DNA of 51,803 nt from a virus. Lineage: Duplodnaviria > Caudoviricetes. Within the stretch, counting starts at the first letter, position 1, and every line of letters starts with the position of its first letter. The stretch lies in IMG/VR virus record IMGVR_UViG_3300033485_000347, positions 1 through 51,803 of that record; one strand, written 5' to 3'. Below, piece after piece: positions 4,726 to 51,803 of the stretch. The position numbers and the translations under genes were made by a program. Below the pieces are notes generated by a model. The model ran no database searches and was not told where the DNA came from. It saw only the letters and a list, made by a program, of their open reading frames with translations.

Positions 4726-4734
4726 CGCGCCCTC

Positions 4735-5070
4735 CTACACGTAGTCCAAGCGGCATTCGCTTGGAATCTCGGTCGTGAGCGGCGCGGTCGCCCCGAGGTC
4801 AGTCGAGCAGAACCAGCACAGGCCGGTCTTGTAGAGCTTCCCGTGGAAGTTGACCTTGACGCGGGTGGGGTGATCCCCGAACCCGACTTGGATCTGGTCC
4901 GTGATGGCGGTCGTCCCCGGCGTGGAGGACGTGGCATCATATAACTGGATGTAGACTGCCGCCGTCGCGGTGGGCTTGCGCGTCACGGTGATGGACTTCA
5001 GCCGCACGGCGCTGGTAGAGACCACGATGTCCGTGGTGTCGGCCCACGAGGTCTGGACGTTACAGGGCAT
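4735..5070 (-). CDS. Putative small virion (head decoration) protein
   Basis: 111 aa, beta-rich, RBS AGGAGG, downstream of the MCP. Confidence 0.55.
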   Translation of the reverse strand: MPCNVQTSWADTTDIVVSTSAVRLKSITVTRKPTATAAVYIQLYDATSSTPGTTAITDQIQVGFGDHPTRVKVNFHGKLYKTGLCWFCSTDLGATAPLTTEIPSECRLDYV

Positions 5071-5089
5071 GCGAGCCTCCTATGTCTTT

Positions 5090-5117
5090 AGGGTGGGGAC
5101 CCTGCGGCCCCCACCCT
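5090..5117. terminator. Intergenic stem-loop
   Basis: AGGGTGGGG...CCCCACCCT inverted repeat between head genes, without a strong U-tract. Confidence 0.4.
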
Positions 5118-5140
5118 CGGCGCATTCACCGTGCCACAGG

Positions 5141-5671
5141 TTAGATCAGGATCGTGGTCCCCGTGCGATACAGCACCCAGCACCGGATGTCATCCGTGGC
5201 CGGGTTCGTGCCGTCCTCGCCGTCCGCGACGAACGACATGTAGTTGGTGAACGGGATGCCCTTCGGGAAGACATACGGCCACAACTCTTCCGTCAGGTCG
5301 GTGGCCGCCGCCTGGAGCCACACCTGAATCTTGGGAATGTCGGTGACGCGGGTGTCCCCCGCCGCGAAGGCCGCGATGGTGCCGTCCGAGTCATCGCAGA
5401 CGGCCAGGTAGTCCTCCGAGGCGTCCGCCGACAACTGGCCGACCAGCATCCCGTACAGCACGGCCCCCGTCTCCGGGGCGGTCGCCGTGGCCGCGCTGGT
5501 CTCGTCGATGTCCTCGATGGGCTTGAACTCCCAGTCGGTCTGGTCCTTGTGCGACGTCGAGAGCATGATCTCCTTGCACATCTTCACGAACAGGGCCGCG
5601 CTCTCGCCGCCATTGGCGATGCTGCCGATATGGCCTTCCAACAGGGGAATGACAACTTCTGGAGCAGGCAT
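5141..5671 (-). CDS. Putative virion/head-associated protein
   Basis: 176-aa acidic ORF with RBS GAGAGAGGG and high GC3, in the head operon. Confidence 0.6.
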   Translation of the reverse strand: MPAPEVVIPLLEGHIGSIANGGESAALFVKMCKEIMLSTSHKDQTDWEFKPIEDIDETSAATATAPETGAVLYGMLVGQLSADASEDYLAVCDDSDGTIAAFAAGDTRVTDIPKIQVWLQAAATDLTEELWPYVFPKGIPFTNYMSFVADGEDGTNPATDDIRCWVLYRTGTTILI

Positions 5672-5762
5672 CAGTACGTCCCTCTCTCTCCCTTGCCCTC
5701 ATTCAGTCCCGTGCGGGGCTTAGGCATCGGCCCGGGAGCAGGCACACGACGCAGAGAGCCGG

Positions 5763-6365
5763 TCACACGCGAACAATTTCGACGTGCATCGGCTTACCGG
5801 GATCGCGCACGTTCGGGCGATCCACGTAGTTCGGAATGCTCTGGCGGTCGAAGAGTTCCGCCCCGGCCACCGTCGTGGTGGGCACCAGGAACGTGTCCTC
5901 CGGGACCGCCTCGGCATACTGGACGATGTAGTCGTCCTCCACCTTCACGGACCCCGCAATCGCCCAGCCCGGCCCGAGGGCCACCGCCCGCTCGGCGGTC
6001 AGCGACCCGCCCCCGCCGGCCTTCCGACGGAGGGTGCCCGGAATGATGCTGTGGGCGTGCAGATGTTCCGCGACCTCGCTAGGGAGCACCTTGACCTCGT
6101 ACGGGGCGAGTTCGTACACCCGCCCGTTGAACATGTGCTCCCAGGGTTCCCCGGTGCGGTTGTAGATGTACCGGTTCCGCTCCGGGAGGGGTTGCAGGTC
6201 CGCGAGTTGCTCCTCGCGGGTCTTGGCTGGGGCGTTGGCCTGCTCGACCATGGGGGCCTCCGTGGGCGTCTCCGATGGCCAGGATACGGCGAGGTCGGCC
6301 TTACAGGCTTTGCAATACTCCCGCCGGGGCCCGTACAACCGCTCGCCGCATCCTTTGCAGACCAT
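5763..6365 (-). CDS. Hypothetical protein with N-terminal CxxC..CxxC
   Basis: 200-aa ORF directly after the MCP with typical codon usage. Confidence 0.6.
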   Translation of the reverse strand: MVCKGCGERLYGPRREYCKACKADLAVSWPSETPTEAPMVEQANAPAKTREEQLADLQPLPERNRYIYNRTGEPWEHMFNGRVYELAPYEVKVLPSEVAEHLHAHSIIPGTLRRKAGGGGSLTAERAVALGPGWAIAGSVKVEDDYIVQYAEAVPEDTFLVPTTTVAGAELFDRQSIPNYVDRPNVRDPGKPMHVEIVRV

Positions 6366-6381
6366 CAGTCACCGCCCCTGG

Positions 6382-7668
6382 TTAGACGACGTGCGCCGAG
6401 ACGAAGTCGTGCGTGATCCCGGTCAACTTCCACGCCGTATTGGGTTTCTCCGAACTGAGCTGCTCGAAGCAGCGGAATGTCGCCTCGAACGTGTCCACCG
6501 CCGTGGTGCTGCGGGAGAGCACGTCCCCGTCGTCGTCCACCCACCCCATCGGGCCGGGATGCCGCTTGATCCAGCGGGTATCCAGGCCGAACATCTGCCC
6601 GTAGGGGGCCATGTGGTCCTGGTAGATGGGGATGCTGCCGAACTTCAGACCGGTCTCCGCGTACCGCCGCGCCCCGTTGGCCGCGTTGGTGCCCGCGTTC
6701 GGGTTCATCAGGTCCCCGGCGGTGTAGCGCCGGTCGGTCTCCATCGACTTGAGGTAGGCCCGCTTGACGCCCGGCTCGCACCAGATTTCGTTGGTGCGCC
6801 CCGCCGAGAGCTTCGCGGAGACGTCGATGGCGCGCTGGATGACATCCGCGCCGATGGCTCCGACGCTGCCCACGACCGTGGCGTTCAGGATCGGGAACGT
6901 GGTGCGGGACTTCCCGAAGTAGAGGTTGACCAGCGTGGCGTTGTCCACGATTCCCGAGAGGCCCATCGGGTGGTGCATGTACTCGGTGTTCCCGATGGTG
7001 AGTGTCGAGGAGGTCTGGACGCAGCGCACCACGAAGTCGTTGTCGCTCCACGTCACCGCCGAGTTGACGGTGATGGTGGCCGAGGTGGGCACGCCGGTCA
7101 CGCGGTAGGCGGTCGTCTGCCGCAGCGCCCCGGTGGGGTTCACGCCCGCGATCCAGTCGTCCACGTTGAAGAAGCGGGAGCCGTCATCGCTGCCCGACAG
7201 GCCTCCCGGCGCGTCCAAAGTGATGGTGGTGGTCGTCGCCGCCCCGTTGCACAGAGCCAGGACGCCGCGCCCGTCCCCCCAGAACGCCTGGTTCCGGCGC
7301 TGCTGGAGGACTTCCTTGACGTCCTGCATGCCGATTTCCATGGCATCCGCGAACGCCGCTTCCCCCGTGGTGGAGGCTTCCATCAATTGCTTGGTGATGC
7401 TCCACGCATGGTGGTAGTACCGGTTGGGGATCAACAGTTCCCCGATTTCCGGCGTGCCGGCAACCGGCGGAGCCCCGCCTTCTGCCGTGTAGTACCCGCC
7501 CCTGTTCCGGTTGAGGCGGATGCCCTTGACGAGGCCCTTGCCCCCGATGGGCTTGCCCGTGCCGAACGAATCCAGCAACGGGGTTTCGTTGTTCAGTTCG
7601 TTGATGATCCCCGGCTCGATATCCTCCTTGAGGATGCCGCCGAGGGTGCTGGTGGTCGATCCGGCCAT
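6382..7668 (-). CDS. Major capsid protein (HK97 fold)
   Basis: 428 aa, follows portal and scaffold; LKEDIEPGIINELNNE, AEGGAPP and FWGDGRG are typical of phage MCPs. Confidence 0.85.
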   Translation of the reverse strand: MAGSTTSTLGGILKEDIEPGIINELNNETPLLDSFGTGKPIGGKGLVKGIRLNRNRGGYYTAEGGAPPVAGTPEIGELLIPNRYYHHAWSITKQLMEASTTGEAAFADAMEIGMQDVKEVLQQRRNQAFWGDGRGVLALCNGAATTTTITLDAPGGLSGSDDGSRFFNVDDWIAGVNPTGALRQTTAYRVTGVPTSATITVNSAVTWSDNDFVVRCVQTSSTLTIGNTEYMHHPMGLSGIVDNATLVNLYFGKSRTTFPILNATVVGSVGAIGADVIQRAIDVSAKLSAGRTNEIWCEPGVKRAYLKSMETDRRYTAGDLMNPNAGTNAANGARRYAETGLKFGSIPIYQDHMAPYGQMFGLDTRWIKRHPGPMGWVDDDGDVLSRSTTAVDTFEATFRCFEQLSSEKPNTAWKLTGITHDFVSAHVV

Positions 7669-35765: not shown

Positions 35766-37064
35766 TTATCGCACCGTCAACACGGGCGTCCCGATGGGCG
35801 CACCAAGTTCAAACGCTCCAAGGTCGAATCCGCCGCCCTGGGGACGCGGATCCCCATCATAGTCGAGCTCCACCCCGTAACTCGTGCGCCCTCCGGAAAC
35901 GGACACGCCCTGGTCTACCGCCAGAGTCGATCCACCCGTGAGGTGGAAGTCGTGCGTGGTGCGATTGGTGAAGGCGGGATCGCCGCTGGTCAGGTTGTGG
36001 TCCGCTGTGATATCCGCTCCCGCCGATCCCCACTCCGTCGCCGCCGTGGAGCAGTTCGAGAAGATATTGTTCCGGAAGATGATGTCACCGGACAGCAACG
36101 CCGTCGTGGTGTTACAGTACGCGCCATAGGGGTTGCCGTCCACCGTGTTGTGATAGAAGTAGACGTTCTGCTTGACCCCAGGGCTGCCGCCCCAATCTCC
36201 GGGCAGCCGCAGACCAGACCGATTGTTGTCGTACACGAGGTTGTTGTAGACCCAGATGTCATGGCACAGTCCACCTTCTTCCGACTCCACGATAATGCCG
36301 TCCCGTGCCATGGTGACGCTGTTGTCGTAGAAGTAGATGTGGTGCGTCTCGTTGCTGAACGCATCTACCCCCAGCCCGTAGCGATCCGAGTTCTGGGCGT
36401 CCGCTCGCGTCAAGTCTATCGTGTTGTGATGCACGTAGACATACGACGCGCCGTCCTTGATGTTGAGTCCTTCCCCGCCCGTCGCGCCAATCGTCCGGTT
36501 CCCGGCATACAGGGTATTGTAGGAGACCTCCACGTTCGTCGAGCCATACGCAATCGAAATGATCTCATCCGATCCGGCAGGCATGTTGGAGTTGTAAATC
36601 GTGTTCCCGTAGACGACCAGATTCGTGGCGCTCCACGAGGCGATCCCGGCCCGCGCCGTGGTGTCGGTGATGCAGTTGCGAATATCGGTATTGGTCGCCG
36701 ACAGGATACAGATGCCGGTATGGCCGCTGTTGATGATCTTGAGGCCATTGATCGTCACGTTGTTCGTCCCCTTGATCCAGACGACGCCTTCCTCGTAGGG
36801 GTCCAGGTCGATGCCCGTGCCGTCCAGAATGGCGGTCCCCACCGTATCGCTCGGATAGCGGGCATAAGTCACGGTACTCGCGTAGGACTTGTAGGAGAGG
36901 TTCAGCGCCTCGTTCCACGTCCCGGAGCGGAGATAGACCGTATCCCCGGATGTCGCCGTCGCCGTCGCTTTGGCGAGCGTGAGCCAGGGTGCCCCAATCG
37001 TTCCGGCGTTCGCGTCGTTTCCCGCCGGCGAACTGGCAGCGGTGGCCACATAGTAGGTGCTCAT
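35766..37064 (-). CDS. Right-handed beta-helix protein (virion depolymerase/adhesin-like)
   Basis: TYYVAT...GNDANAGT...PWLTL...GDTVYLRSGTW cap, repeated xxYNNxxY rungs and C-terminal DPAF...DFHL...DLGAFE; ATG at 37064 overlaps the upstream stop. Confidence 0.8.
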   Translation of the reverse strand: MSTYYVATAASSPAGNDANAGTIGAPWLTLAKATATATSGDTVYLRSGTWNEALNLSYKSYASTVTYARYPSDTVGTAILDGTGIDLDPYEEGVVWIKGTNNVTINGLKIINSGHTGICILSATNTDIRNCITDTTARAGIASWSATNLVVYGNTIYNSNMPAGSDEIISIAYGSTNVEVSYNTLYAGNRTIGATGGEGLNIKDGASYVYVHHNTIDLTRADAQNSDRYGLGVDAFSNETHHIYFYDNSVTMARDGIIVESEEGGLCHDIWVYNNLVYDNNRSGLRLPGDWGGSPGVKQNVYFYHNTVDGNPYGAYCNTTTALLSGDIIFRNNIFSNCSTAATEWGSAGADITADHNLTSGDPAFTNRTTHDFHLTGGSTLAVDQGVSVSGGRTSYGVELDYDGDPRPQGGGFDLGAFELGAPIGTPVLTVR

Positions 37065-39013
37065 GCCCGCCTCCATTGCAACATCCCGTGGAGTGTGATC
37101 GGCCAGTAGATGGACACCTGCGCTTCGACCGTGCGGAGCCGAATCTGTATCCAGGGAGACCGGAGATGGAACCCGATGCCACCCCAGTCCGCCCCGGTGG
37201 TGCTGGCGCTCATGGTGATGGATGCGATGGTGGAGTAGGACGCGGCGGTGAACTCCCGTGGGTGGTGCGCGGTGCGGGCTTCCACGATGAGCGTCCCGCT
37301 GGACTGCGTCTCGAAGTTCAGCACCAGCTTCCGCCAGGAGACCACGGGATGCGGGCGGCCTGCCGAGATCCACGGGAGCGTGACAAACCGCGTGATGGCC
37401 GTCCCGTCCCAGCTCGTCCCAGTGTTCTGCTCTAGCACCCTCCCCGTGTAGTCCGGGGTCAGGAGATACTCCACATCACTTTCGATGACCGTTTCGGCCA
37501 AGGACACCGACCGGCCCACGATTGGCAGGAACGCCTGCTGTGTGGCATTGTAGGCGATCCCGCTGGTGTTCGTGGTGCCCCCGGATGGCGTCCACCACCA
37601 GTAGAGTTGGTTGGCGTCATGGAGCCGCCCGCCCACCACATACTCCAGCCGCGTGGATTCGATGTCCGCCAGGGTGGGGTCCACGATCTCGCTCGTTTTC
37701 ATGGTCCCGATGCCGGCGAAGGCGTGGAGGTTGTTCCGCCAGTGCATCCACACGCGCCCTGCCGCCATGACCATGCTGCGGTGGGACGTGCAGCCGTGTT
37801 CAGAGGTCACTTCCTGCCGGGTCATGTCATAGTCCGGATATAGGAGGTTCCGAAACTGCACATGCAACGAGTGGACGCTGCTGTCGGTGGTGATAAGCAT
37901 ATAGTCCGCGTACTCGTGCATCCCCGTCACGACGCTGCCACCAGACGTCGGGATGACCACCACGGAGGTGTCGATGCTGTCGAACTGGTCCACCGCCCCG
38001 GTGGCCGAGTAGTAGACGTCCATCCCGGACGACCCCAAGAGCATGCCTTTGAACTCCCGGACAATCTGACAGGCGGGCATGACGTTCGCATAGATGGTGT
38101 AACAGTCATCGAACGAGGCGTTGATCGTCGCGCCCGTCGAGTCGAGGGTAAACGTCAGCTTCGCCAGGGAGGCCCAGGAGGGGGACCCCACGGACCCGAA
38201 TGCCGACCGGAGGGCGTGGACATGGTTCCACCCTGCCGACAGAGATCCCCAGGAACTCCCGAGGAGCTGATAATAGTTGGTGTCGGCCACGTCCCCTAGC
38301 CGGATATTGCATGCCGTGAGGTCCAGGCCCGTCACCGTGTCGAAGTAGACCCAAAAGTCGAGATAGTCCGTGTCGGCGAAGTCGGGTGCCGCGAAGAGTC
38401 CCGACGTCAGATCCCAGGCGGTGGCCGGCGTGAGGGACATCCCAACAGGAGAGCCGGTGGTCGTGAGCTTGAGCGACCGGACCCCCTGTTTCACATTGGT
38501 CGAGTCAACAGCACCCCCCACCCATGTTTCAGTGGACTCCATGTCGCAAATGACTTTGGCCCCTACTGGAATGCAGCGGGTTCCGTCATACTTCAGGTTG
38601 CCGTCGGTGCCGTTCCCCATGACCAGATATTCGTCGATCTGGGTATGGCTCCACCAGGACGCCGCGCCGGTTGTGAGGCCCCGGCGAATGCTCGCCCAGG
38701 TCGCTCCCCCATCCGCAGACTTGTAGACGTGGCCATTCTGACACGCCATGAGGTAGACGGCGGTGCCGGTCGGAGGGCGATACCGGGCCAACATCTGGGG
38801 GGCGGCACTATCTGGAGCCAAGAACCCGGCGATGTGGAGGGTGCTCCCAGGCATCCCGGACGGATAGCCGCCCTGCGTGGTGATGTTCTGGAGGCCCGGC
38901 ACATGATCCGGGGAGGTCTCCGTGGACTCGGACTGGCTATCCAGTCCCTTGTTGAGGTCCTTGATCGTGACGGTCAGTGACCGATCTTCTGCAACCTGGA
39001 CGTCAATGGGCAT
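37061..39013 (-). CDS. Tail nozzle/tube protein (T7 gp12 / P22 gp10-like)
   Basis: 650 aa, beta-propeller-like with HGCTSHRSM and a terminal WIQIRLRT strand; follows the adaptor. Confidence 0.7.
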   Translation of the reverse strand: MPIDVQVAEDRSLTVTIKDLNKGLDSQSESTETSPDHVPGLQNITTQGGYPSGMPGSTLHIAGFLAPDSAAPQMLARYRPPTGTAVYLMACQNGHVYKSADGGATWASIRRGLTTGAASWWSHTQIDEYLVMGNGTDGNLKYDGTRCIPVGAKVICDMESTETWVGGAVDSTNVKQGVRSLKLTTTGSPVGMSLTPATAWDLTSGLFAAPDFADTDYLDFWVYFDTVTGLDLTACNIRLGDVADTNYYQLLGSSWGSLSAGWNHVHALRSAFGSVGSPSWASLAKLTFTLDSTGATINASFDDCYTIYANVMPACQIVREFKGMLLGSSGMDVYYSATGAVDQFDSIDTSVVVIPTSGGSVVTGMHEYADYMLITTDSSVHSLHVQFRNLLYPDYDMTRQEVTSEHGCTSHRSMVMAAGRVWMHWRNNLHAFAGIGTMKTSEIVDPTLADIESTRLEYVVGGRLHDANQLYWWWTPSGGTTNTSGIAYNATQQAFLPIVGRSVSLAETVIESDVEYLLTPDYTGRVLEQNTGTSWDGTAITRFVTLPWISAGRPHPVVSWRKLVLNFETQSSGTLIVEARTAHHPREFTAASYSTIASITMSASTTGADWGGIGFHLRSPWIQIRLRTVEAQVSIYWPITLHGMLQWRRA

Positions 39014-39016
39014 GGC

Positions 39017-40009
39017 TTACCCCGCCACGTGGTCGATGACGATTCTCGGCGTATCCAACTGCCGTTCGGTGACGTCGGAGATCATCCGCTCCGATTCCTT
39101 GGCCGCCAACTTGGCATAGGCGTCGCTGGTCTTGTTCTCTGCCTTCCCCTTGATCCGTGCCACCAGGGCGTCCACGATCTGTGCGTGGTGTTCCGGGGGC
39201 AGTTGCGGAACCGTGGCCAGCGAGTAGCCCACACCGGGAGCACTCGCCTTGAGCCATGCCCCGGTCAGGGTCAACGCGCTGTCGCTGTCGATAGTCTGGA
39301 CCGCCGGGTAGATGGCCGAAGGGTCCACCCACGTCCCGCCCGTCGTCTGGGAGACCACCTTGGGAGCGGTGGCGTCGGCGCTAACGATCAACTCCATCGT
39401 GTTCCGGGCTTCGTTGATGACCCACTCGGTTGAGCCACCCGACACGGTGGCCGCCCCCTGGGTGAGCGACACGGTCCCCGTGCTATAGATTTGCAGTGGG
39501 GCAGAGCGGCTGATATAGGAGATCTCGATATCCACCGTAGTCGTTGGCGGATAGGCCAGGATGAGGGTGTTGTCGCCCACGATGTCATACAGCAACTCGC
39601 CGTCGATGGTGCTCCCCCCGGTGGCATACGCCTGCCCGTCCTTGAACTCCTGCCCGGACATGTCCACTTCCCGGAAGGTGATGATGTCCTCGTAGCCGGA
39701 GGTGATGCACCGGATCGACTTGAGCGTGAGCAAGTCCGGGGGCAACGAGATCCGGTCGCTGGTGGTGCTCAATTGCAGGACGGAGGGGTCGTAGGTCACG
39801 CCGCACCACCGGTAGGCCGTGTCGTTCGACTGCACCACGATCATCCCGTAGTCTTCTTTGGCCTTGTGTAAGGCGGCCTCCGCCGCCCAGGCCGCATCCG
39901 TGGCCCACGCCAACAACTCGGGCAGGCGGAACAGCGGGTCCGTGGTGTCGTCTTGGTTGACAGCATCGGCCTGAAAGAGTGCCAGCCGAATGATCTGGGC
40001 AGCATTCAT
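39017..40009 (-). CDS. Head-tail adaptor protein
   Basis: MNAAQIIRLAL...ISLPPDLL...LAYPP...PQLPPEHHAQIVDAL pattern with a central insertion. Confidence 0.7.
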   Translation of the reverse strand: MNAAQIIRLALFQADAVNQDDTTDPLFRLPELLAWATDAAWAAEAALHKAKEDYGMIVVQSNDTAYRWCGVTYDPSVLQLSTTSDRISLPPDLLTLKSIRCITSGYEDIITFREVDMSGQEFKDGQAYATGGSTIDGELLYDIVGDNTLILAYPPTTTVDIEISYISRSAPLQIYSTGTVSLTQGAATVSGGSTEWVINEARNTMELIVSADATAPKVVSQTTGGTWVDPSAIYPAVQTIDSDSALTLTGAWLKASAPGVGYSLATVPQLPPEHHAQIVDALVARIKGKAENKTSDAYAKLAAKESERMISDVTERQLDTPRIVIDHVAG

Positions 40010-40022
40010 GGACGGTCTCCCC

Positions 40023-40484
40023 TCACCCGTTGATGCTCATGCCCCCCTCGGGGGCGGTATGGGCCGCACTCTCCGGGAGCGTCCGGATGGCGTTTCGATA
40101 CCGATACCGCTCCCGCGCATGGTGGCGCACGTAGTAGCGGAACTCATCCTTGTTCTTGGCGATGGCCGCAAAATACTTCCGGTCGATCTCGTCGGCGATG
40201 GCGTCCGCGCCCCCCTGCCTCCGTATGTCGGTTTTCCAGAGGGTGTAGAAGACGCGCTTGTCCAGCGCCTCCCGGTCCACCTCGAACAGGATGATCTTGC
40301 GGGCCCCTGCCGACACATGGTCCTCGATGTCCACATGGCCCTGTCCGCCCCGGAGCGTGCTCTGCTCGGGCACTGTGCGCTCGATCAGCCAGCAGGACCG
40401 GTGATCGGACCAGCGGCAATCCAGGGCGCTGTCATACTCCTGCAACCGTCGGAGAAAGTCTCGGGGAACATCTAACGCTGGCAT
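40023..40484 (-). CDS. Hypothetical protein
   Basis: 153 aa, RBS AAGGAG, in the structural operon. Confidence 0.65.
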   Translation of the reverse strand: MPALDVPRDFLRRLQEYDSALDCRWSDHRSCWLIERTVPEQSTLRGGQGHVDIEDHVSAGARKIILFEVDREALDKRVFYTLWKTDIRRQGGADAIADEIDRKYFAAIAKNKDEFRYYVRHHARERYRYRNAIRTLPESAAHTAPEGGMSING

Positions 40485-40493: not shown

Positions 40494-43400
40494 TTAGTGA
40501 GCCCGCTTGAATCTGTTGCGAATCCGGCCAATCCACAGGGCGAACGGGTGGTACTCGGCTTCCTCGGCCTCTGCCGTCGCCGACGGGGTTGCGGATGGTG
40601 TAGCAGACACCGTGGCGCTCGGCGATGGGGAGGGAGAGTGGCCTTCCGTGTAGAGGGCGACGGCGAAGGCGTGCTTCGCGGTGACGGCGGTGGATGCGAT
40701 GATGTTGATGTCGCCCGTGTCGCCGGAACTGCTCCACTCGCAGTGGCCGAAGGTGTGCGAGAACCCCGACAGGGCCGTCCCTTCGTCGTAATCCTCCAGC
40801 CAGTCGTTGTCCAACTCAGTCGGCTTGGTGAACGTCACCGGGGAGGTGTAGGCGACCGACCCGGCGTATATGATGGAGGCGTAGGCATTCGGGACGTTGA
40901 ACGTGGCCGCCCGGACCATCGTGTTGTCGCTCGTGTAGGACGTGTTAGAGACCGCACAGATGGGATGCGATAGGTCAAACCCGCTGCGGTATGCCGCCAC
41001 GGTTATCTTGGTGGCTGATGACGCCGCCCATTGCCAGGTGTAGGTGGCCGATTCGCTGCTGGCCAACCGCCAGTAGAGCCACCACCCGTAGGCGCCGGCG
41101 TTCTTGCCCAGGAGCGTCCACCCTGGAGACTCCACACTCGGGTCCGTCGTGTCGCCCCGGGTGATGAGGGTGAACAGCCCGTCGTTGTCCACCACCCCGG
41201 CGGGGCGATTGACCGTGGCCGAGGCGCTGTTGTCGCTGTTGTAGGTCGCCGCACGGACGAAGAAGGTCTCGGTGCCGATGGAGGGGGTGGCCGAGGGAGT
41301 GGCACTCGGGCTTGGGGTCGATGACGGAGTCGCAGACGGCGTAGAACTTGGGCTCGGCGTAGCCGACGGCGTCCCAGATGGCGTTGCACTCGGGCTGGGG
41401 GTCGCGCTTGGCGTGCCAGAGGGCGTCGCGCTCGTCGTGGCAGACACGGTTGCTGATGGCGACTCAGTGGCCGAGGGAGTCGCTGAGACGGTGGCAGATG
41501 GTGTCGCAGAGACCGTTCCGCTTGGCGTCCTTGACGGGGTGGCCGAGACCGTGGCGCTGGGCGTCCGAGAGACGGTCGCGCTGGGGGTCGCCGAAGGCGT
41601 CGCGCTTGGGGTTAGGCTTGGCGTGCTGGACCGAGTGGACGAGGGGGTTGCAGACGGAGTAGCCGATGGGCTCTCCGTCGCAGAAGGAGTCGCGGAGGGT
41701 GTGGCTGAAGCGGTAGCCGACGGCGTCCGCGATGGGGTTGCCGAAGGCGTGGCAGATGGGGTAGCAGACGGACTCTGGGTCGCACTCGGGGTAGCCGATG
41801 GAGTTGCTGAAGGCGTCGCCGAGGGCGTAGCGGAAGGTGTTCCTGAAGGTGTGGCCGAGGGGGTCGCACTCACCGTGGCGGAAGGGGTCGCCGACGGCGT
41901 CCCTGACGGAGTCGCAGAGGGAGTCGCCGACGGTGTGGCCGATGGACTCTCTGTCGCCGACGGGGTGGCCGATACCGTGGCACTTGGGGTCGCGCTAGGC
42001 GTTACACTCCAGGTGACAGAGGGAGTCGCGCTCGGAGTCGCGCTGGGAGTTGCGCTCGGACTCTCGGTCGCCGACGGAGTGGCCGAGGGTGTGGAGGATG
42101 GACTTAGGGTTGCACTCGGTGTGGCCGAAGGCGTTGCGGACGGTGTTGCCGACGGAGTAGCCGATGGAGTTGCGCTTGGTGTCGCGGATGCCGTAGCCGA
42201 CGGGGTAGCCGACGGGGTTGCCGAAGGAGTCGCACTCGGGGTTGCCGATGGGCTTTGGGTTGCCGACGGAGTGGCTGATGGAGTCTCCGAGGGTGTCGCG
42301 GATATGGTTGCAGACGGAGTCGCCGAGGGAGTCGCGCTTGGCGTCGCAGAAGCAGTCCGCGAAGGGGTAGACGAAGGCGTCGCCGAAGGGGTAGCCGAAG
42401 GAGTCGCGCTTGGCGTCCCGGAAGGTGTCGCGCTGGGGGTAGCGCTCGGGGTAGCCGACGGGCTTTGCGTAGCCGACGGCGTGGCGGACGGAGTCGCCGA
42501 TGGGGTCGCGCTCGCCGTCCTGGATGGCGTCGCTGAAGGGGTCGCAGACACCGTGGCGCTGGGGGTCGCAGAGGGCGTGTGGGACGGCGTGGACACGGTG
42601 GTGTAGGAGAACCACACCTCGTTCGAGTAGTCCCCTTCCACCGTGCCGTTGAGCGGGATGATGACGGCGTAGTATTCTCCGTCACCTCCGATGAAGTCGA
42701 CGATGTTGATGGTGCGAGTGTCCGCATCCCCGAAGTCATATTGGTTCGGGTAGACCCCGCTGACGGTGCCCCACCGCACACGCCACCCGTCCTGCCCAGA
42801 CCCGTCCCACGTCCAGTCCAGCGCCGTGGCGTTGATGTGCATGCTCGGCGTGGCCGAGGGCGTCGCGGAGGGAGTGGCGGATGGGGACTGTGTAGCCGAG
42901 GGGGTCGCGCTTGGGGTGGATGACGGCGTCTGAGACGGGGTCGCGCTTGGCGTCGCTGACGGGCTTTGGGTGGCCGATGGCGTCGCGCTTGGAGTCGCGG
43001 ACGGCGTGCGGCTTGGGGTCGCAGATGGAGTAGCGGAGACCGTCGCGCTTGGCGTGGCCGATGGAGTGGCAGAGACCGTTGCTGAGGGCGTGGCGGATGC
43101 GGTTGCCGAGGGCGTGGCGGATGCGGTAGCACTCGGAGTCGCGCTTGGCGTTCCTGACGGCGTCGCAGATGGAGACTCAGTGGCAGACGGGGTAGCACTC
43201 GGCGTGGCGGATGGCGTAGCCGATGGGGTCACGCTTCTCGTCAACGATGGAGTTGCGGAGGGCGTGGCGCTCGGAGTCGCGGATGGAGATAGCGTCGCCG
43301 ACGGGGTCGCACTGGGCGTCGCGCTCGGCGTGGCCGACGGAGAGGGGTATCCGGACTCGTAGGCCCCCATGTCCGGGTTGCCGATGATGGCGTTGCCCAA

Positions 43401-46400
43401 GTAGTCCGTCGTCAGGCCGACATCTACGCCAGCGTTGCGGCAGGGAGACAACGCCCCCAGGTGGAAGTCGGCTGGGGCGTTGACGAAGAGGGGGTCGGAA
43501 TTGAGGTCGGTGCCAACACCGGTCAGCGCGTTCCAGGTGGCGAGGACGTTCCCCCCCGTGGCATTCCAGAAGTACCAGTTGGTGGCAGCGGAGTACCAAC
43601 AGTTGTTGGTGATATCTAAGGCATTGTCGTAGGTGGTTGAGTCTAAATAGATGGCATAGGTATTTGCGACAGTAGCGACAGCAATGTTATTTTTAATCGT
43701 GGCTGTGGTGAGATTGTTCGAGGACATCAGAAGGATTTCTGATTTATTGTCCATCCCTCCGAGAGCATTATTCCCATAGGTCACGTTGTTATAGAGAATC
43801 GTCCCCGCCGCATCATAGGCGTAAATGCCTGCGCCTTGATTTCCTCGGGAGATGTTGTAATAAACAGAGTTATTCGCACACCACTGATCAATGGCGATTC
43901 CGGTTCCGTCGTTTCCTCCCCCCATCTGCCCGTAGACGAGGTTGTACCGCACGATGTTGTTGTCGCCGGAATTTTCCCCGTTCTCCGAGTAGAACTTGAT
44001 CCCCCCCCACCCACCAGACCCCGAGGTGCCGTTGTTATAGACCGTGTTGTTTTCGACGATCCAGTAATTGGCGCGGATATGGATGCCGTCGTTCAGGTTG
44101 TTGTAGACTGTGTTGCCGGTGATGTACGTTTCATGTCCGGATGTTGACCCGCTGTCAATATACGAGGAGATCCCGTTACGGAGCTGGGAGTAAATGGTAC
44201 AATTCTCGACGCGGTTATCTCCGGAGTTCCCATAGGAGAACATGATCCCGAAACCGCCGCCGTATCGGATGGTGGAATTTTGCAGGATAAAATTATTGAC
44301 GAGATTGTTTTCCGTCTGAACGACGCCCTTGTTGGTATTGTTCCCACCTTCCAGCACCAACCCATCGACCGTTACATAGTCTGTTTCAATAACCAACACG
44401 CTCGCCCGATAACTGGCCTCAATTCCTGGGTCTGTAAATGCGCTATCGGGGTCCGATGCAGAGTAGACGTACAACAGGTTCGACGCCCAGAACCATTCGT
44501 TCGCAGCGTTGATGGCCGCCAAGGACCCGGCATTCGTCCCAAGTGTTCCATTGAACAAGACCTGGAGAGGTTCAGTGGTCAGTGCGGCCTGCCAAACGGT
44601 TTCACTCGTAGTAACCTTGTAGACCTTGAAATAGAGGTCGCCTGCGTAGGCATTTCCCCATGCCGGAGTGACTTCGGTATACCTCTGGCAAATGCCACCA
44701 GCATATGATCCGGTTCCGCCATTCGCGGTAATCGTATAATAGTTGGTCGCATCAACCGCTCCGCTTCGGTCGAGGACAATGTGGTATTGGGTCGATCCTG
44801 TTAGGGAAGGTGGCGTGGCGAAGGTGAACGTATATTCCGCCATCGAGGTGGTCAGCGTCCCTCCAGCAACATCACCGCTTGTTCCGTTTGTGACCACGGT
44901 GCCTGGGACGCCAGCGGAATCGTTATAGATATAGACCGTCAAGTTGTCGGTGGGACTCGACGCTTTTTTTAATTTGAGAACGATCGAAGAGACCGATACG
45001 TTTCCGCTAGGAGTATATCCCTGCGCCCACATCGTCTGGGTATTGACGTTCCCAAGATTTAGCGCAGGAAAGTCTTGTCCGGTTTGGCTCGCGTCGAGTT
45101 CCGTGGTAGAGATTGCGCTAAAGGTTGTAATTAAGTTAAACGCAGAGAGTTTTGGATCGTCCCCCGTCCCATACGCCCCGAACGTGATCGCGCCTTCTAC
45201 GCTTCCGCTGGATGGGGGGGTGAGTTGCTCGCGCCAGGTACAGCCACGCTTGAAGAGGATGGAGTCGCCAGCGGAGAACGAGGACGCATTGACTTTGGCC
45301 ACCGTCTTCCAGGCCGTGAGTTCGCTCAGGCCATCCCCAGTATCGTCGGCGGCTGCCGTATCCACGTAGTAGGTCTCGCCGACTGCCGGGGTGGCGGACG
45401 GAGTGGCAGACGGGGTTGCGGACGGAGTGGCACTGGGGCTTTGCGTCGCAGATGGGGTGGAGCTGGGCGTTGCGGACGGGGTGGCAGATACGGTCGCTGA
45501 AGGCGTCGCCGACGGAGTACGGCTTGGGGTAGCCGAAGGTGTAGCAGAGGGCGTTGCGGAGACGGTCGCAGACGGGGTAGCCGATACGGTGGCTGATGGC
45601 GTCGCACTGGGCGTGTTACTGGCCGAGATGAACGCCAACCCCGGAACAGCCAGCGTATTGGCGATCCACTCGTGCGGCGTGGCATCGCTCGTCAGGCTGA
45701 AGACTCCTGGGTCTTCCGTCTGCGCGGAGGCGAACAGGAACGCCACCTGCGTCATACAGGTGGTGCCGGACGCCGCCGACTCCACTTCCGCTACTTGCGT
45801 GTACCCCGTGGGCCACCACGTCGCGTTGCCCCCGGCATCCTGGTCCGCACCCGCCGTGGCAATGAACATCCAGTCGGTGTCGGTTCCGGTGTTCAGGCTA
45901 GGTGGATCAGGCTGCCAGGTGCTTCCGGTGGCCGACGTGCCTGCCAAGACATCCGCAATGCTGTGGCATCCGTGGTTGATGATGCGGGTGGAGACGACCG
46001 CGTAGTCCTGCGCCGCGCCGGTGAGGACCGCTGCATCATCCCCCGTGGCGATCTTACCGAAGACGGCATGCTTGATGACGTTGCCCGCATAGGCGGTCTG
46101 GAAGATCGTCGTGTACCCGGACATCGCCATGTCGGTGGTGCCCGGCGTGTCTTGGGTACAGAAGTGTAGGATGAGGTCGCCGACGGCGATCCCCGCCGGC
46201 ATGTTCAGCGAGACACCGGACCCAAGGGTGATGCCTGCGGTGGTATTCTGCGCGTAGACAAACGGGTAGGCGGCTTCCGGGCTGGGGGTAGCCGAAGGCG
46301 TGGCCGATGGGGTTCCGCTGGCAGTCGCAGACGGGGTCGCCGAGGGTGTCGCGCTCGGCGTCGCCGAGGGCGTGGCGGATGGAGTAGCCGAGGGCGTGTT

Positions 46401-47021
46401 GGAGGCGGTGTTGTCGGCGAGTTCTCCAAAGGAGAAGTCGTCCATCGCCACAAGGACATCATCGGTTTCGACCGCGTAGTATCCGGCGGCAGTGATCGGG
46501 GACGAACTATCCGTGATGTTCCCGCCAAGTTGCGCCCACGCTCCTCCGGAGTATAGGTAGGCTTTGAGTGTCGTGGTGGACGTTCCGGAGGCGGACAGCC
46601 CTAACTTGTTCCCGTCCACGATGGTCAGGTTCGTCCAGGAGACGAGATCCGCCGGGGTGCCGTTGACCACCTTGATCACGCAGTATTGGTAGTTGGATCC
46701 GAGAATCCGTAACCCAATCGCGTACCCGTCGTAGGTGGTCAGGGTGGGGTCGGACACGCGGAGATAGAGATACATCTGCCGCGTGTTGGTGTCCATGAGG
46801 TCGTTGAACGTAATGTGGACCTCACAGGTCGCCGACGTCGCGGGCGTGGTCCAGTACGCCGCCGCCCAGGTGCCCGACGTCTCGGAAGAAAACAGCGTTG
46901 ATCCCCACGCCTGGAGTGCCCCTTCCGAGAACGCCGTCGCCCATCCGCTGGCAATCGGATCTTCCGGGTCAGGATCTCGACCAAACCCGTCTACCAGGAC
47001 CGCATAGTCTGGAAAGGCCAT
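40494..47021 (-). CDS. Giant (2175 aa) multidomain mucin-like virion protein
   Basis: Five (TPSA)n blocks separating beta-rich domains, including a beta-helix and an FN3-like domain; no signal peptide; RBS GAGGT. Confidence 0.85.
41280..42600 (-). repeat. Longest (TPSA)n block, about 110 tetrapeptide units with codon-degenerate 12-nt periodicity
   Basis: From translation. Other blocks lie at about 40575-40640, 42843-43348, 45385-45620 and 46278-46400. Confidence 0.9.
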
Positions 47022-47023
47022 AG

Positions 47024-48082
47024 CTACCTCACGCTCAAGATCGGTGTGCCAATAGGAGCGCTTTCTCCCGCGTTAATCGTGATCTCTTCCCCGGATGAGA
47101 CCTCCCCGGTGGAGTCCACCACATATAGCCACGCAGAGCCGGAAGAGGCAAGCCCTCCGAGATTCACCGTGGCCGTGATGCTACTGGTGCTCCACGCCGA
47201 GGGAATTTGCGGTTCGCGGATGGTGCAGTCGTCATACGTGTTCGCGTTTCCAAGCATGACCCGCGACAGCGTATTATCGAGATACACGTCATCGAAATAC
47301 GCATAGGCACTCGCCGAGGGGCCCTCGTAATTGGAATAATAGTTCTGGAAGCAAAACCACGAGTTCGGATGCGGCCCGTTTGCGCTCCATCCGAGAAATC
47401 CGCTGCTATTGACAATGAGGTTGCAGTTTTCCCAATACTGCGCCGAGGCGTCGTATTCCCCATACGTCCCGCAATCAATGATGAACTCTTCGGTAAACCA
47501 TTGTTGATAGGGCGGTTCCCGCCTCCCGTAATACTGGACCTCGTAGTATTCCGGCATGTAGTAATTCAGAATGCCTTCCGGAATGCCGTTGGGGTCGTTC
47601 CCCATGTTGATGTAACTGAGCAGAATCACGTCAGGGGCAGACTCGCCAGTATTCGGCCCCATGCGGTTGACCTTATACTGCCCGAGGTCTCCGCCATACG
47701 TGCCGCGCAGCATGTTGTTCTCCGAGTAGTACCGCCGGCAGAACCCGAAGATCTGCGGGTTCGCGCCACCGGGGGCGACCCGGACCTCCACGTTTCTGCT
47801 GACTTCCCCCCAGTTGGTGGTGCCCACTGGTGAACTGGCCGAGGTCAACGGCGTGCCCCCGATACAATAGACAGACCGGCTTCTGGGGTTCACCGTGAAG
47901 AGGTTGGCATTGTCGTATAGAAGGGTTCCGGAACTCAGGGGCGACTCCTCAAGCACACCCTCCTCAAAGTCCGCCCACACCAGCGGAGCGGCTGGTGACT
48001 TCGTCAAGAATCCGCTTCCGCTGATGATCACAGACGATCCGTGGGACCACGTGCCGTTGATCGAAGAAATCGAGGGAGCCAT
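47024..48082 (-). CDS. Putative virion carbohydrate-binding protein
   Basis: APSISSING...IISGSGF IPT-like start, lectin-like body (YFDDVYLD), C-terminal [11 protein letters not shown]. Confidence 0.6.
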
Positions 48083-48085
48083 CGC

Positions 48086-49045
48086 TTATCCTTTCGGCAA
48101 GGCGTCGAGGTCCGCGTCCGTCCACCCGTCCACGGGCCAGAACTTCTGCACCAGCCACGACAGCGGACGCGCCTGCAATTTCCACTCGCCGTTGCGCCAG
48201 AACTTCCGGCTGTAGATCCGCGCTCGCTCTTGATCATTACCCGAGATGGGATACGGGAATCCCGCCTTGTTCACGCGGAAGTAATGGCTGAACCAAGTCG
48301 TCTTGTTCACCACCTGTCGCCCCCCCGAGAGCCAGGACTTACAAGACACCTCCGTCCCGAACTGCCCCCAGGATCCGTGGCCCTCGTCCAGGCAGCCCAG
48401 CTTGCGGAAGCGGTCCCTCCGCATAAAGAAGCAGGCCCCCACGGAACTCATCACGTCTGCAATGTCCGTCTGCGTCTCAGGGCGCTTCTCGTACCGGGGC
48501 CAGTATTGGAAGTGGAGTTCGCTATCGAACCTGGCAAAGTCCGTGCGCCGGGACTTGCGGGGACTCCACACCACCGACTTGTCGAACTCCGTCCCTTTAC
48601 ACTTCGGGCACTCCGTCGGCTTCCCGCCCTGATACGTCTTGAAGCGGTGGCACGTCTGACATTCCCAGTCGTACACGTAGAGGTTATACATACGCGGAAT
48701 AGACGTGACATCCACGCCCAGCGTGCCGTTCTCGTAGGGGGCCGCCATCTTCACGTCGAAGTCCTTGTCGATGGCACTGTGGGCGTCCAGTTTGCAAATG
48801 TACTTTGCCCGGCTCACGCGATACCCCAGGTTGACCGCCTTGCGCTGTCCTGCCGGGGTGTTGAAATGCAGGACCGTGAGGCGCGGGTCATCCTTGAGCG
48901 GGGGGTCCGGCCAACTCGCATCACAGACCGCAATGACCTCGCTGTCCTTGGACAGGTTCGTGAGTAAATCTTCCACGGTGCGGCCAAACCACTCCTCGTT
49001 CCGACCGGGCACAATCGCGCTCATCAGCGGAGTCCGCTCAGCCAT
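48086..49045 (-). CDS. Glycosyltransferase, GT27 (polypeptide GalNAc-transferase)-like GT-A
   Basis: RNEEW..RTV, EVIAVCD, LDAH (DxH), GACFFMRRDRF..LG.LDEG..SWG...E.S.K.WLSGG, SHYFR..FPY. Confidence 0.8.
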   Translation of the reverse strand: MAERTPLMSAIVPGRNEEWFGRTVEDLLTNLSKDSEVIAVCDASWPDPPLKDDPRLTVLHFNTPAGQRKAVNLGYRVSRAKYICKLDAHSAIDKDFDVKMAAPYENGTLGVDVTSIPRMYNLYVYDWECQTCHRFKTYQGGKPTECPKCKGTEFDKSVVWSPRKSRRTDFARFDSELHFQYWPRYEKRPETQTDIADVMSSVGACFFMRRDRFRKLGCLDEGHGSWGQFGTEVSCKSWLSGGRQVVNKTTWFSHYFRVNKAGFPYPISGNDQERARIYSRKFWRNGEWKLQARPLSWLVQKFWPVDGWTDADLDALPKG

Positions 49046-49067
49046 GAGAGTATCCAAGAATTAGTTG

Positions 49068-49096
49068 TTGCATGTCTCGTAGGCTTCTCGTAAAAT
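49068..49096 (+). promoter_or_regulatory. Sigma70 promoter of the HNH gene
   Basis: TTGCAT-17 bp-TAAAAT. Confidence 0.65.
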
Positions 49097-49168
49097 AATC
49101 GAGCCGAGACAGCGTTGGAGCGCCATCCCGGCTCTTGCCACAATGGAACCTTGATAGGAGGTTCGATC

Positions 49169-49696
49169 ATGGCTGACCAAGAGTACCTCGTAATTCATTC
49201 CCTGACCAGAACTGAAATAGACAGAATTTTTAACAAAATAGAAGTCGATCCAGTAACTGAGTGCTGGAATTGGACTGCTAATAAAACTCCGTCTGGGTAC
49301 GGAATTATATGGTTTCATGGAAAAAACGAGTCCCCGCATAGGCTTTTGTATGCTTGGAGGATTGGTCCTCTTCCAAGAGGAAATGGCAGAGACATCCCAC
49401 AGATAGATCATATTGTTTGCAGCAATCCTAGTTGCTGTAATCCAGGGCATCTCATCCTTACGTCTCTTATAGAGAATGTTCTTAGGAGTGATGCCATTCC
49501 AGCCGTAAATGCGAGAAAAACACATTGTAAGCGCGGTCACAAACTTCCTCCGTACGTTCCTGGTAATTTCAGAAGATGTGAAGAATGCGATGCCATTATT
49601 GATAGAACTAAATATCGCAGGACGTACTACCTCCGACATCAAGAGGAGGTTAAAGAGAAATCCAGAGCGTATCGACTCAAGCATCGTAAGCATTAG
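49169..49696 (+). CDS. HNH homing endonuclease (free-standing, antisense)
   Basis: ECWNWT...GYG...HRLLY...IDHIVCSNPSCCNPGHL...EN...KTHCKRGH; AT-rich; RBS AGGAGG. Confidence 0.9.
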   Translation: MADQEYLVIHSLTRTEIDRIFNKIEVDPVTECWNWTANKTPSGYGIIWFHGKNESPHRLLYAWRIGPLPRGNGRDIPQIDHIVCSNPSCCNPGHLILTSLIENVLRSDAIPAVNARKTHCKRGHKLPPYVPGNFRRCEECDAIIDRTKYRRTYYLRHQEEVKEKSRAYRLKHRKH

Positions 49697-50463
49697 GTTT
49701 TGCTGTATCCTACTCCAGCGCCTTTTTTAGAAAAGATGCTGGCATTAAGATCGCTCTTCCTGCTGAGATTGTGGAAAAGTCCGAATGGATTATGATCACA
49801 ATCTCCGCACCACTGTCCACCTGGGAACATGTAGATCGTGGGCCGCGTGTCCATGTCGCAGTCTTTTGCCGTCCCATTCTTCACCGCCTGCATCCACGCC
49901 TTCTTGAACCAGCGGTCCTCCCCCTGCGGGTACGGCTTGCCGACGCAGTCCTCCCGATAGCCCCCGATCTGCCAGTAGACCTCCCGCCGCATGGTGAAGT
50001 TGTTGGGGTGCGGGGGCATCTTCACGCCCCGAGTCGGCACCCGCTCCGGGAGCAGGCCGTACTGTAAGAGCGTGGGAATGTCCTGCGTGAAATTGCCGTG
50101 TTCATCCAGCACGCCGAACTCCCGGTGGAAGGCAAGACGATCCCCAGTGAATGTCAATGACCGGGCGATGGCCTCCTGCGAGATGATGTAGTCCAAGTCC
50201 GTCATCAGGAAGTAATCACCCTTGGCGGCCTTCGCCCCGGCATTGCGGGCGAGTGCCCACGTCCACGGGCGGAAGTCGTTGGTCACGAGGATGCGGAAAT
50301 TGCGGGGCGGGTCCGGCACCGTGATCGGGGGATCGCTCCCGTCGTCCACGTAGATGATCTCCACGGAGTTAGGGAGGTCCAGTCGCTTGAACCAGAGCAT
50401 TTGCCGCCGGACGATCTCGTGGCTGTTCAGGACGGGGACGATAATCGACAGTCTTATTGCCAT
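49693..50463 (-). CDS. GT2-family glycosyltransferase (GT7-like C-terminal motif)
   Basis: LSIIVPVLN, IIYVDDGSD, ARNAGAKAAKGDY...DLD, IGGYRED...GED. Confidence 0.88.
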   Translation of the reverse strand: MAIRLSIIVPVLNSHEIVRRQMLWFKRLDLPNSVEIIYVDDGSDPPITVPDPPRNFRILVTNDFRPWTWALARNAGAKAAKGDYFLMTDLDYIISQEAIARSLTFTGDRLAFHREFGVLDEHGNFTQDIPTLLQYGLLPERVPTRGVKMPPHPNNFTMRREVYWQIGGYREDCVGKPYPQGEDRWFKKAWMQAVKNGTAKDCDMDTRPTIYMFPGGQWCGDCDHNPFGLFHNLSRKSDLNASIFSKKGAGVGYSKT

Positions 50464-51155
50464 GCGCCAGTCCTCGCGGTCCAGGGGTGTCGTCCTGCCG
50501 TCGCTTCAATAATCTTCCACTTCGCCAAGGAACGGGCTGCGCGTTCCCCTTCTGGAGTGCGGTGTGGCCTGGGATGATCGTAGTGCCATCCAACGATGTC
50601 ATCACAAAAGACGAAGGAACATCCCCGATGCTCCAGGCAAGATGAGAGCCACCGGTCCTCCCCACCATCTGGGTATTTGAACTCTTCGTCGTTCCCGCCG
50701 ACCGCATATAGGTCTTCTTTCCAAAGCGCCCCAAGGAAGAAATACGAGCGATGTATTCTGGTGCGTGGCCAGTAGTCGCTCTGCACCCTGTTACCGCCTT
50801 CGTCTACATTTTCCACTTTCGCAAACACACAGGAGGACGGCGTCAACCGACTAGCGAGTTTCGCAATCGTTCCGGGCGTCCGGTGTTCGACTTCGTCAGA
50901 TTGCGCGATAATGATGTCGCCCTGCGCTTCCCGGTAGCCAAGGTTCCGCGCCGGTCCTGGGTTCCGGAGTCCGCTACGGTGGAGATAGAAATAGCGGATG
51001 GGGAACTCCTGCGCGAGTGTCACGGTCGCATCGTCCGACCCGTCGCTCACGACGATCACTTCACACTCTGGTGGAAGATGCTGCGCGTAGATGCTCCGCA
51101 GCGTCCGCTTCAGCGCGGCATACTTGTTATAGGTGGCAATCACCACGGAGATCAT
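50454..51155 (-). CDS. GT2-family glycosyltransferase (GT7-like C-terminal motif)
   Basis: ISVVIATYN, VIVVSDGSDD, ARNLG, VGGNDEEF...GGED...HYDH; ATG at 51155 overlaps the epimerase stop. Confidence 0.88.
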   Translation of the reverse strand: MISVVIATYNKYAALKRTLRSIYAQHLPPECEVIVVSDGSDDATVTLAQEFPIRYFYLHRSGLRNPGPARNLGYREAQGDIIIAQSDEVEHRTPGTIAKLASRLTPSSCVFAKVENVDEGGNRVQSDYWPRTRIHRSYFFLGALWKEDLYAVGGNDEEFKYPDGGEDRWLSSCLEHRGCSFVFCDDIVGWHYDHPRPHRTPEGERAARSLAKWKIIEATAGRHPWTARTGAWQ

Positions 51156-51803
51156 GCGAGTCGGTATTCCTTCCGCATCCAATCCGCCGTGAGCTTCAAC
51201 CCGTCTCGGAGCCCATGCCGCGCCATGAAGCCTAAGTCGTGGATCGCCTTGGCCGTGTCCACTTCCTTGACCTTCGTGGTCATCCGCTCCGTGTCCTGGT
51301 ACGACACGAGGGACATCGACGCCCCAGTTACTTCGAGCACCGCGTCGGACAGTTCCTCGATGGAGTGCGAGGTTCCTCCCCCGATGTTGTAGGTCTGCCC
51401 TCGGTGAAAATGTTCACAGATGTTCGCCAGGGCATCCACCGCGTCATCCAGATAGGTCGAGGTCCGCCGATGGCCCCGGTAGACGACCCACGGAAGGCCA
51501 TGCAGGGCGCAGTACAGGAACCGGCAGTTGACCGAGCGATAGGGCGTATAGCGCTCCCCCGGGCCATACGTGTTGAACAGGCGCACGATCACGGACTGCG
51601 TGTTATGGAGATCCTCGGAGTTCCGGATCTGCATCTCGTTGACCCACTTGGTCATGGCGTAGTCGTTCAACTGTTTGACCTCGTGGTCATCCATCACCGA
51701 CTCGACCATGAGTGAGGGCCAATCCCCGTAGACCTCCGAGGACGAGAAGTGGACGAGTCGGAATCCCAGCGCCTCCTGCAAGCGAATTAGGTGCTTGGTT
51801 CCG
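51152..51803 (-). CDS. NAD-dependent NDP-sugar epimerase/dehydratase, C-terminal part
   Basis: SSSEVYG, catalytic YAMTK (YxxxK), RLFNTYGP, TYNIGG; in frame with 1-444 across the overlap. Confidence 0.92.
   Translation of the reverse strand, partial: GTKHLIRLQEALGFRLVHFSSSEVYGDWPSLMVESVMDDHEVKQLNDYAMTKWVNEMQIRNSEDLHNTQSVIVRLFNTYGPGERYTPYRSVNCRFLYCALHGLPWVVYRGHRRTSTYLDDAVDALANICEHFHRGQTYNIGGGTSHSIEELSDAVLEVTGASMSLVSYQDTERMTTKVKEVDTAKAIHDLGFMARHGLRDGLKLTADWMRKEYRLA
51662..51803. repeat. Terminal direct repeat, copy 2
   Basis: Matches 1-142 with 2 mismatches. Confidence 0.97.

Follow-up and report, generated by a model that had tools for sequence, protein, structure and literature searches.

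A phage cassette that pairs a GT27-like glycosyltransferase with a giant Thr-Pro-Ser-Ala repeat protein: a predicted system for virion O-glycosylation

The glycosylation of virion proteins by phage enzymes is reportedly the subject of a mycobacteriophage study by Freeman et al. from 2023. Here we analyse a 51,803-nucleotide (nt) stretch of viral DNA (Duplodnaviria; Caudoviricetes), positions 1 to 51,803 of IMG/VR record IMGVR_UViG_3300033485_000347 (hereafter the window), which carries a cassette of glycosyltransferase (GT), methyltransferase and sugar-donor genes together with the gene of a 2175-amino-acid (aa) repeat protein (the giant). An earlier note on this DNA had proposed a phage-encoded mucin with its own O-glycosylation pathway. 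The likeness to family GT27, the linkage of enzymes and repeats, the joint insertion and, by analogy, the virion location have stood up, whereas the supply of UDP-GalNAc by a GalE-type epimerase has not. We consider it likely that the cassette enzymes attach sugars and methyl groups to the stalks of this protein in the cytoplasm and that the product decorates the virion.

Several described systems resemble parts of this cassette. The polypeptide GalNAc-transferases (ppGalNAc-Ts) of family GT27 (PDB 8v9q, 1xhb, 8uhv) have in common with the phage enzyme a GT-A fold, a metal site of a DXH motif plus a His, W-G and H-x-F-R motifs and Ser/Thr acceptors next to Pro; the phage enzyme differs in being cytoplasmic, in lacking a membrane anchor and a ricin-type lectin domain, in its zinc-ribbon insertion, in having Phe in place of Glu334 and Val in place of Arg208, and in that its gene lies beside its predicted substrate. 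The serine-rich repeat proteins (SRRPs) of streptococci, staphylococci and lactobacilli, as described in the available passages of PMC6973325, likewise show a Ser in every other position, carry their binding regions on repeat stalks and are encoded together with a cluster of 2-10 GTs, but use a GtfA/GtfB initiator, SecA2/Y2 export, a long signal peptide and an LPXTG anchor. The phage has instead a GT27-like enzyme, Pro-rich T-P-S-A units, methyltransferases and a structural-operon setting. Alternating Ser repeats are found in it; signal peptide, LPXTG motif, SecA2/Y2 and GtfA/GtfB are not, the termini being free of hydrophobic stretches and the cluster genes matching other families.

Among viruses, mycobacteriophages use phage GTs and an O-methyltransferase gene to modify virion proteins (excerpts of PMC11600133, PMC12619734 and PMC12582341), but their glycans sit on the C-termini of capsid and tail-tube proteins, and a dedicated repeat substrate is not reported in the excerpts of PMC11600133 and PMC12619734. 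Chlorovirus PBCV-1 (A064R, A061L) builds a methyl-capped glycan on a virion protein with viral GTs and class I methyltransferases, but it is a giant virus of eukaryotes with an N-linked capsid glycan and no repeat stalks, according to the available part of PMC9614988. Literature searches found no description of a GT27-like enzyme combined with a repeat substrate. The cassette is real and widespread and, it appears, unpublished, joining an SRRP-like substrate to a GT27-like enzyme.

The giant repeat protein and the GT27-like enzyme

The giant (40494..47021, minus strand) consists of five (T-P-S-A)n stalks at residues 205-248, 466-543, 1227-1394, 1475-1915 and 2129-2148 (44, 78, 168, 441 and 20 aa), set between globular domains of 204, 217, 683, 80 and 213 aa and followed by a 27-aa aromatic/basic C-terminal tail. 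The repeats sum to 751 aa, with 51% Ser+Thr and 21% Pro, in keeping with the roughly 750 aa, half of it Ser/Thr, that had been estimated before; they form five blocks, however, and not one tract. Ser or Thr occupies 374 of the 375 alternate positions, half of these being Thr. The 105 exact TPSA units are written in 81 different codon forms, which indicates that the repeat is kept at the protein level. The repeats, five stalks lying amid carbohydrate-binding-type domains, are as similar to bacterial serine-rich repeats as to the mucins with which they had been compared.

Choice-of-anchor R and Q domains occur in the giant; the 683-aa part combines a right-handed beta-helix (Beta_helix, 2e-10) with the R domain (NF041539, 9e-12, above cut-off). 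Domain 2 resembles unnamed viral clusters, and domains 2, 4 and 5 share 39-46% identity with a 1388-aa repeat protein of phage locus L001. The C-terminal tail, a candidate anchor, resembles tails in L001, L034, L063, L078 and L079. Virion location is supported by relatives: in these, 17 of 113 non-repeat segments match virion families that have a name, for example major tail protein (L006, L008), Dit (L062), fibre J (L047) and tail terminator (L029); 88 match nothing. By analogy with these, the giant is likely to be a glycosylated virion spike. The adjacent 352-aa protein (47024..48082, minus strand) has Ig/TIG-like ends and relatives with polysaccharide-lyase-type domains (PF14099, PF21294, TIG); its single-sequence fold prediction reached a pLDDT of 32. 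Nine of its last 11 residues (47024-47056) are identical to those (35766-35798) of a tail-region beta-helix spike (35766-37064). This C-terminal peptide is a candidate for virion docking, and the 352-aa protein is likely a virion-attached carbohydrate-binding protein.

The GT27-like enzyme (48086..49045, minus strand) has a GT-A fold whose nearest counterparts among solved GTs are those of GT27, as the earlier note had supposed, and the catalytic fold spans all 318 aa, with a four-Cys zinc-ribbon insertion. Its metal site corresponds to the DXH-plus-His definition for Mn (PMC11074326), D91, H93 and H258 being present in 95 of 95 alignment rows, and the W-G and H-x-F-R motifs are present as well. 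Neither a ricin-type lectin domain nor a membrane anchor or other hydrophobic segment was found. The residues that give ppGalNAc-Ts their GalNAc specificity are Arg208, Gly308, Gly332 and Glu334 (PMC13071866); by sequence alignment their equivalents here are Val, Val, Gly and Phe, and the Glu334 equivalent is F, M, V or Y in all 95 rows. The protein is predicted to be an initiating protein O-glycosyltransferase whose first-sugar donor is probably not GalNAc. The family has at least 575 viral contig matches and 1156 protein clusters.

Linkage of enzymes and repeats across relatives

After circularisation, the minus-strand gene order proposed earlier was confirmed: capsid protein, four head-region genes, Methyltransf_24 protein, a 213-aa GT-A protein, two methyltransferase-like paralogs, a B12-binding radical S-adenosylmethionine (SAM) protein, a nucleotide-sugar enzyme of the short-chain dehydrogenase/reductase (SDR) type over the junction, two GT2s, the GT27-like enzyme, the 352-aa protein, the giant, a 153-aa protein, adaptor and nozzle. 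An HNH gene between the second GT2 and the GT27-like enzyme is indeed present, but on the plus strand. From 3883 via the junction to 49693 each enzyme gene shares 1-10 nt with the next, also as claimed, and the gaps between the GT27-like gene, the 352-aa gene, the giant and the next gene are 3, 2 and 9 nt. Co-orientation alone means little, since nearly all genes of the genome lie on the minus strand. The cassette takes up 15.05 kb, or 29% of the circle, inside the structural operon. Joint insertion there is borne out by relatives L291 and L293, in which both flanks are kept and the enzymes and the giant are both missing.

Seen from the enzyme side, the expected co-occurrence is supported. Same-strand repeats of at least 50 aa accompany the enzyme in 61 of 82 enzyme-anchored viral loci versus 0 of 80 capsid-protein-anchored loci (64/82 versus 0/80 with a broader repeat detector); after removal of identical enzymes the count is 59 of 73, and among loci of at least 15 kb it is 45 of 48. 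The enzyme was absent from all 50 whole records of capsid relatives examined (the 50 longest of 80, mostly partial), and seven nearly whole ones contained no alternating tract. The cassette core consists of the GT27-like enzyme, the 213-aa GT (66/82 viral loci, often fused to the GT27-like enzyme) and the Methyltransf_24 protein (61/82). A sibling in a metagenome-assembled genome (MAG) titled Anaerolineales (L208, 1-11715; capsid 85%) has the same enzyme block, but the HNH gene is absent and there is a single methyltransferase-like paralog; the GT27-like open reading frame (ORF) of this sibling, possibly split, was called with a length of 245 aa.

From the repeat side the linkage is weaker, and the presence of repeats does not entail the enzyme. 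Several further findings also weigh against the proposed function. The enzyme lies within 10 kb in only 3/80, 4/25 and 11/76 repeat-anchored loci. One record, G211, is 96% complete and has no enzyme match. Three of the 48 long GT27-like loci have no repeat, and in L208 the gene after the enzyme starts with a signal-peptide-like stretch, where the contig stops. The loci are kin, and Fisher p-values therefore overstate the linkage. Identity to ppGalNAc-Ts is only about 20%; none of 50,697 phage records gave a full-length match to the GT27-like family, cultured phages included; and in profile scans no domain of the giant matched a named virion family.

Repeat length and virus type separate the repeat-anchored loci further: outside giant viruses the enzyme accompanies 13 of 25 long repeats (at least 100 residues) versus 2 of 57 short ones, and in giant viruses 0 of 19; these sets still contain a few near-duplicates, and several of their loci also belong to the enzyme-anchored set. 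Of 17 further whole records, three match the enzyme, one at full length; among those without a match most are 3-36% complete, one is 52% and one, G211, 96%. G213, a near-twin of G211, carries a different DAH-motif GT (best match GalNAc-T12) directly behind repeat tail proteins. The long GT27-like loci L016, L023 and L081 have no repeat tract in reach, and some of their neighbours have signal-peptide-like N-termini and beta-helix domains. In a siphophage (L449:5443-19525), tail-tip proteins carry Ser-Pro repeats, and after them come a second, distant lineage of ppGalNAc-T-like enzymes, GT2s and methyltransferases. A 2349-aa viral protein (L413:3118-10167) has 1784 alternating Ser/Thr residues, with TPSA units and Cys, on a 76-kb partial record without a match to the enzyme family.

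Donor sugar, other cassette genes and genome setting

The SDR enzyme is encoded in two parts on the minus strand, N-terminal at 1..444 and C-terminal at 51152..51803. The two contig ends overlap by 142 nt (1-142 = 51662-51803) with two mismatches, and since both are silent in its frame the gene reads on across the junction, at 317 aa by arithmetic. Both parts match Mth373 (8w3u; 2e-42 and 3e-60), with E-values that lie tens of orders of magnitude below those of entries named GalE (best for the N-terminal part 6e-7); the C-terminal part also matches human UDP-xylose synthase at 7e-10. Mth373 (PDB 8w3u/9ar1) was assigned as a UDP-xylose synthase from its bound product rather than by assay, according to the available part of PMC12820599. 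The phage enzyme has the UDP-xylose-synthase signature, namely the Ser/Tyr/Lys triad and equivalents of Glu114, Arg75 and Asn171, and keeps the Mth373 residues Ser112, Glu114, Tyr142, Lys146 and Arg75. Where Mth373 has Tyr73 it has Phe, and at Tyr73/Gly184 it carries the Phe/Ser pair called typical in the same excerpt. A GalE 4-epimerase finds no support, the halves scoring 43-44 bits against a TIGR01179 cut-off of 262. The enzyme is thus likely of the UDP-xylose synthase type; its relatives occur in just 3 of 82 viral loci, which marks it as an accessory gene and means that xylose need not be the first sugar.

All remaining enzyme genes lie on the minus strand. The first GT2-family enzyme (50454..51155, 233 aa, soluble) matches PF00535 at 2e-20, and the second (49693..50463, 256 aa), a predicted extending enzyme, at 8e-10. 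The B12-binding radical SAM protein (441..1634), of class B type (PF04055 9e-22, PF02310 3e-11), matched no equivalog above cut-off and is predicted to be a C-methylating or other tailoring enzyme. Methyltransferase-like paralog 2 (1631..2143) has a weak O-methyltransferase match (E 0.002) and no Pfam match, and paralog 1 (2140..2637) is 47% identical to it. The 213-aa GT-A-fold protein (2637..3278) has an invariant E-x-D, and its Atlas model gives a TM-score of 0.70-0.74 to GT2 clusters; no PDB match was found by sequence. The class I methyltransferase (3275..3883) matches Methyltransf_24 at 1e-19. Start codons are probably at 3883 (methyltransferase), 51155 (first GT2) and 49045 (GT27-like).

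The genome reads as a podovirus-like circle of 51.7 kb with terminase, P22-like portal, capsid protein and SU10-type adaptor; IMG/VR lists it as linear and 58% complete, probably owing to the two end-overlap mismatches. A contig of run X1, which may be the source sample, extends 994 nt beyond the window end with exactly two differences, and two X1 contigs (39500-42537 and 42508-50205) together contain the giant ORF in identical form. Both flanks on the minus strand are kept in cassette-less relatives, upstream the major capsid protein (6382-7668) with four head-region genes (3880..7668) and downstream the 153-aa protein, SU10-type adaptor and putative nozzle (37061..40484). The free-standing HNH endonuclease (49115..49696, plus strand; phrog_826, E 4e-31; 44% GC) is a late insertion outside the pathway, absent between the same two genes in the sibling L208; a 210-aa minus-strand ORF at its site gave no match in family searches. 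Elsewhere lie a GP88-family gene (16492-17265, plus strand), a DnaD-like initiator (18802-19602), Erf (22738-23535), a repressor-like gene (26000-26197) and a GC-rich 12-nt unit repeated 14 times in tandem (25150-25322) within a 218-aa ORF (25100-25756, DUF7666 match). Among the ORFs scanned, none matched an integrase or DNA polymerase.

Proposed mechanism, alternatives and cellular copies

In the mechanism we favour, the SDR enzyme would make the donor, most likely UDP-xylose, from host UDP-glucuronate, and the Mn-dependent GT27-like enzyme would add the first sugar to Thr/Ser beside Pro. The 213-aa GT-A protein and the two GT2s would extend the glycan, and three class I methyltransferase-type proteins together with the radical SAM enzyme would cap or tailor the sugars. 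Glycosylation would stiffen the five stalks into rods, summing to about 190-230 nm if extended, which may space out carbohydrate-binding domains and shield the particle, with the C-terminal tail as a candidate anchor.

That the giant is glycosylated by the cassette yet is no part of the virion, being a decoy released at lysis or displayed on the host, is improbable. Its lack of a named virion family match would fit, as would the choice-of-anchor R and Q domains, described by name from cell-surface proteins, and the existence of cellular cassette copies; but the giant has no predicted signal peptide or transmembrane segment, its gene lies between head and adaptor genes, the repeats of relatives form fusions with tail tube, Dit and fibre proteins, and its 352-aa neighbour shares its C-terminal peptide with a tail-region spike. 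Quite improbable, too, is that the enzymes glycosylate other virion proteins and that the repeats stay bare, stiff Pro-rich spacers. Known phage virion glycosylation does fall on capsid and tail tube, and many viral Pro/Thr repeats come without a GT27-like enzyme, yet a bare spacer needs no such regular Ser/Thr alternation, gain or loss affects enzymes and repeats jointly, and the giant is the sole protein in the window with an alternating Ser/Thr tract.

We regard as very improbable that the enzymes modify host lipopolysaccharide or another surface polysaccharide, for serotype conversion or superinfection exclusion, with the giant unrelated. The first GT2 matches the GtrB-like phrog_841 (4e-8), and cyanophage clusters of nucleotide-sugar enzymes and GTs have been so interpreted (PMC12801897); against this, none of the eight enzymes scored has a transmembrane segment and the ninth, the SDR enzyme, belongs to a soluble family, the membrane set GtrA/GtrB/GtrC was not found, no flippase or integrase was matched among the ORFs scanned, the lead enzyme is nearest to GTs with protein acceptors, and the enzymes are linked with repeats. 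Hypermodification of phage DNA with methylated sugars is hardly credible, even though phage GTs can do so (available part of PMC12619734) and the Methyltransf_24 protein matches a PHROG labelled DNA methyltransferase (5e-15): hydroxymethylase, TET/JBP, nucleotide kinase and DNA polymerase had no match among the scanned ORFs (small ORFs not all included), the cluster lies among structural genes far from replication genes, and on cellular chromosomes copies of the cassette adjoin genes for giant repeat proteins.

These cellular copies of the GT27-like family were found in 163 stretches of GTDB genomes, with repeats in 49 of the 80 fetched. Some are phage contigs in bins, and many lie amid cellular genes, the record titles being Woesebacteria, WWE3, Daviesbacteria, Levybacteria, Parcubacteria and Saccharibacteria. 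Those whose title says Gammaproteobacteria group in the same 56-row clade, the checked ones being genomes of about 1 Mb, and we infer that they are Patescibacteria too. The twin-arginine translocation (Tat) gene tatC lies within 10 of the 80 cellular loci and is single-copy in 5 of 5. In a one-class sample, TatC occurs in 6 of 7 genomes with a full-length enzyme versus 10 of 143 without, counts from incomplete MAGs that are not corrected for kinship. Nine of those ten were inspected: four have tatC beside other Ser/Thr-rich proteins of 850-3020 aa, and two of these four have pairs of GT41 O-GlcNAc-transferase genes, possibly a swap of one protein O-glycosyltransferase for another. Five of the tatC-linked repeat proteins have a common end motif, which we take to recall phage fibre domains. 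On several small cellular chromosomes (L282:11119-19722, L239:12087-20486, L279, L398-L400) what follows the cassette is an (S-P-S-x)n protein of 900-2400 aa that has no signal, together with tatA/tatC. Two loci (L393:2045-17812, L396:2-17728) have tatC and no GT27-like gene; besides two GT41 genes they encode an FkbM methyltransferase, a large protein rich in Ser/Thr and a beta-helix protein.

A much broader picture, which we put forward tentatively and as rather unlikely in full, is that of a mobile mucin module of prokaryotes. In it a GT27-like family, cytoplasmic and without a lectin domain, would build methyl-capped, non-GalNAc O-glycan brushes, here possibly containing xylose, on (S/T)-x repeats; these would form the glycocalyx of hundreds of unrelated phages and would have been domesticated by Patescibacteria with dedicated Tat export of a signal-less giant glycoprotein, as streptococci use SecA2/Y2, and no prokaryotic relative of the animal mucin-initiating enzymes would be nearer than this family. 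The window offers a clean case: the variant here contains Thr, the insertion site is defined, and the donor-making enzyme indicates a testable sugar. If the cassette works as proposed above, phage virion glycosylation, so far a matter of a few mycobacteriophages, would come to include a self-contained cassette that is widespread and brings its own substrate, and the small soluble GT27-like enzyme, which should express easily, may serve the glyco-engineering of mucin-like brushes. It would also be relevant to how mucin-type O-glycosylation arose, and in Patescibacteria it would provide a testable function for giant repeat proteins and for the rare Tat genes.
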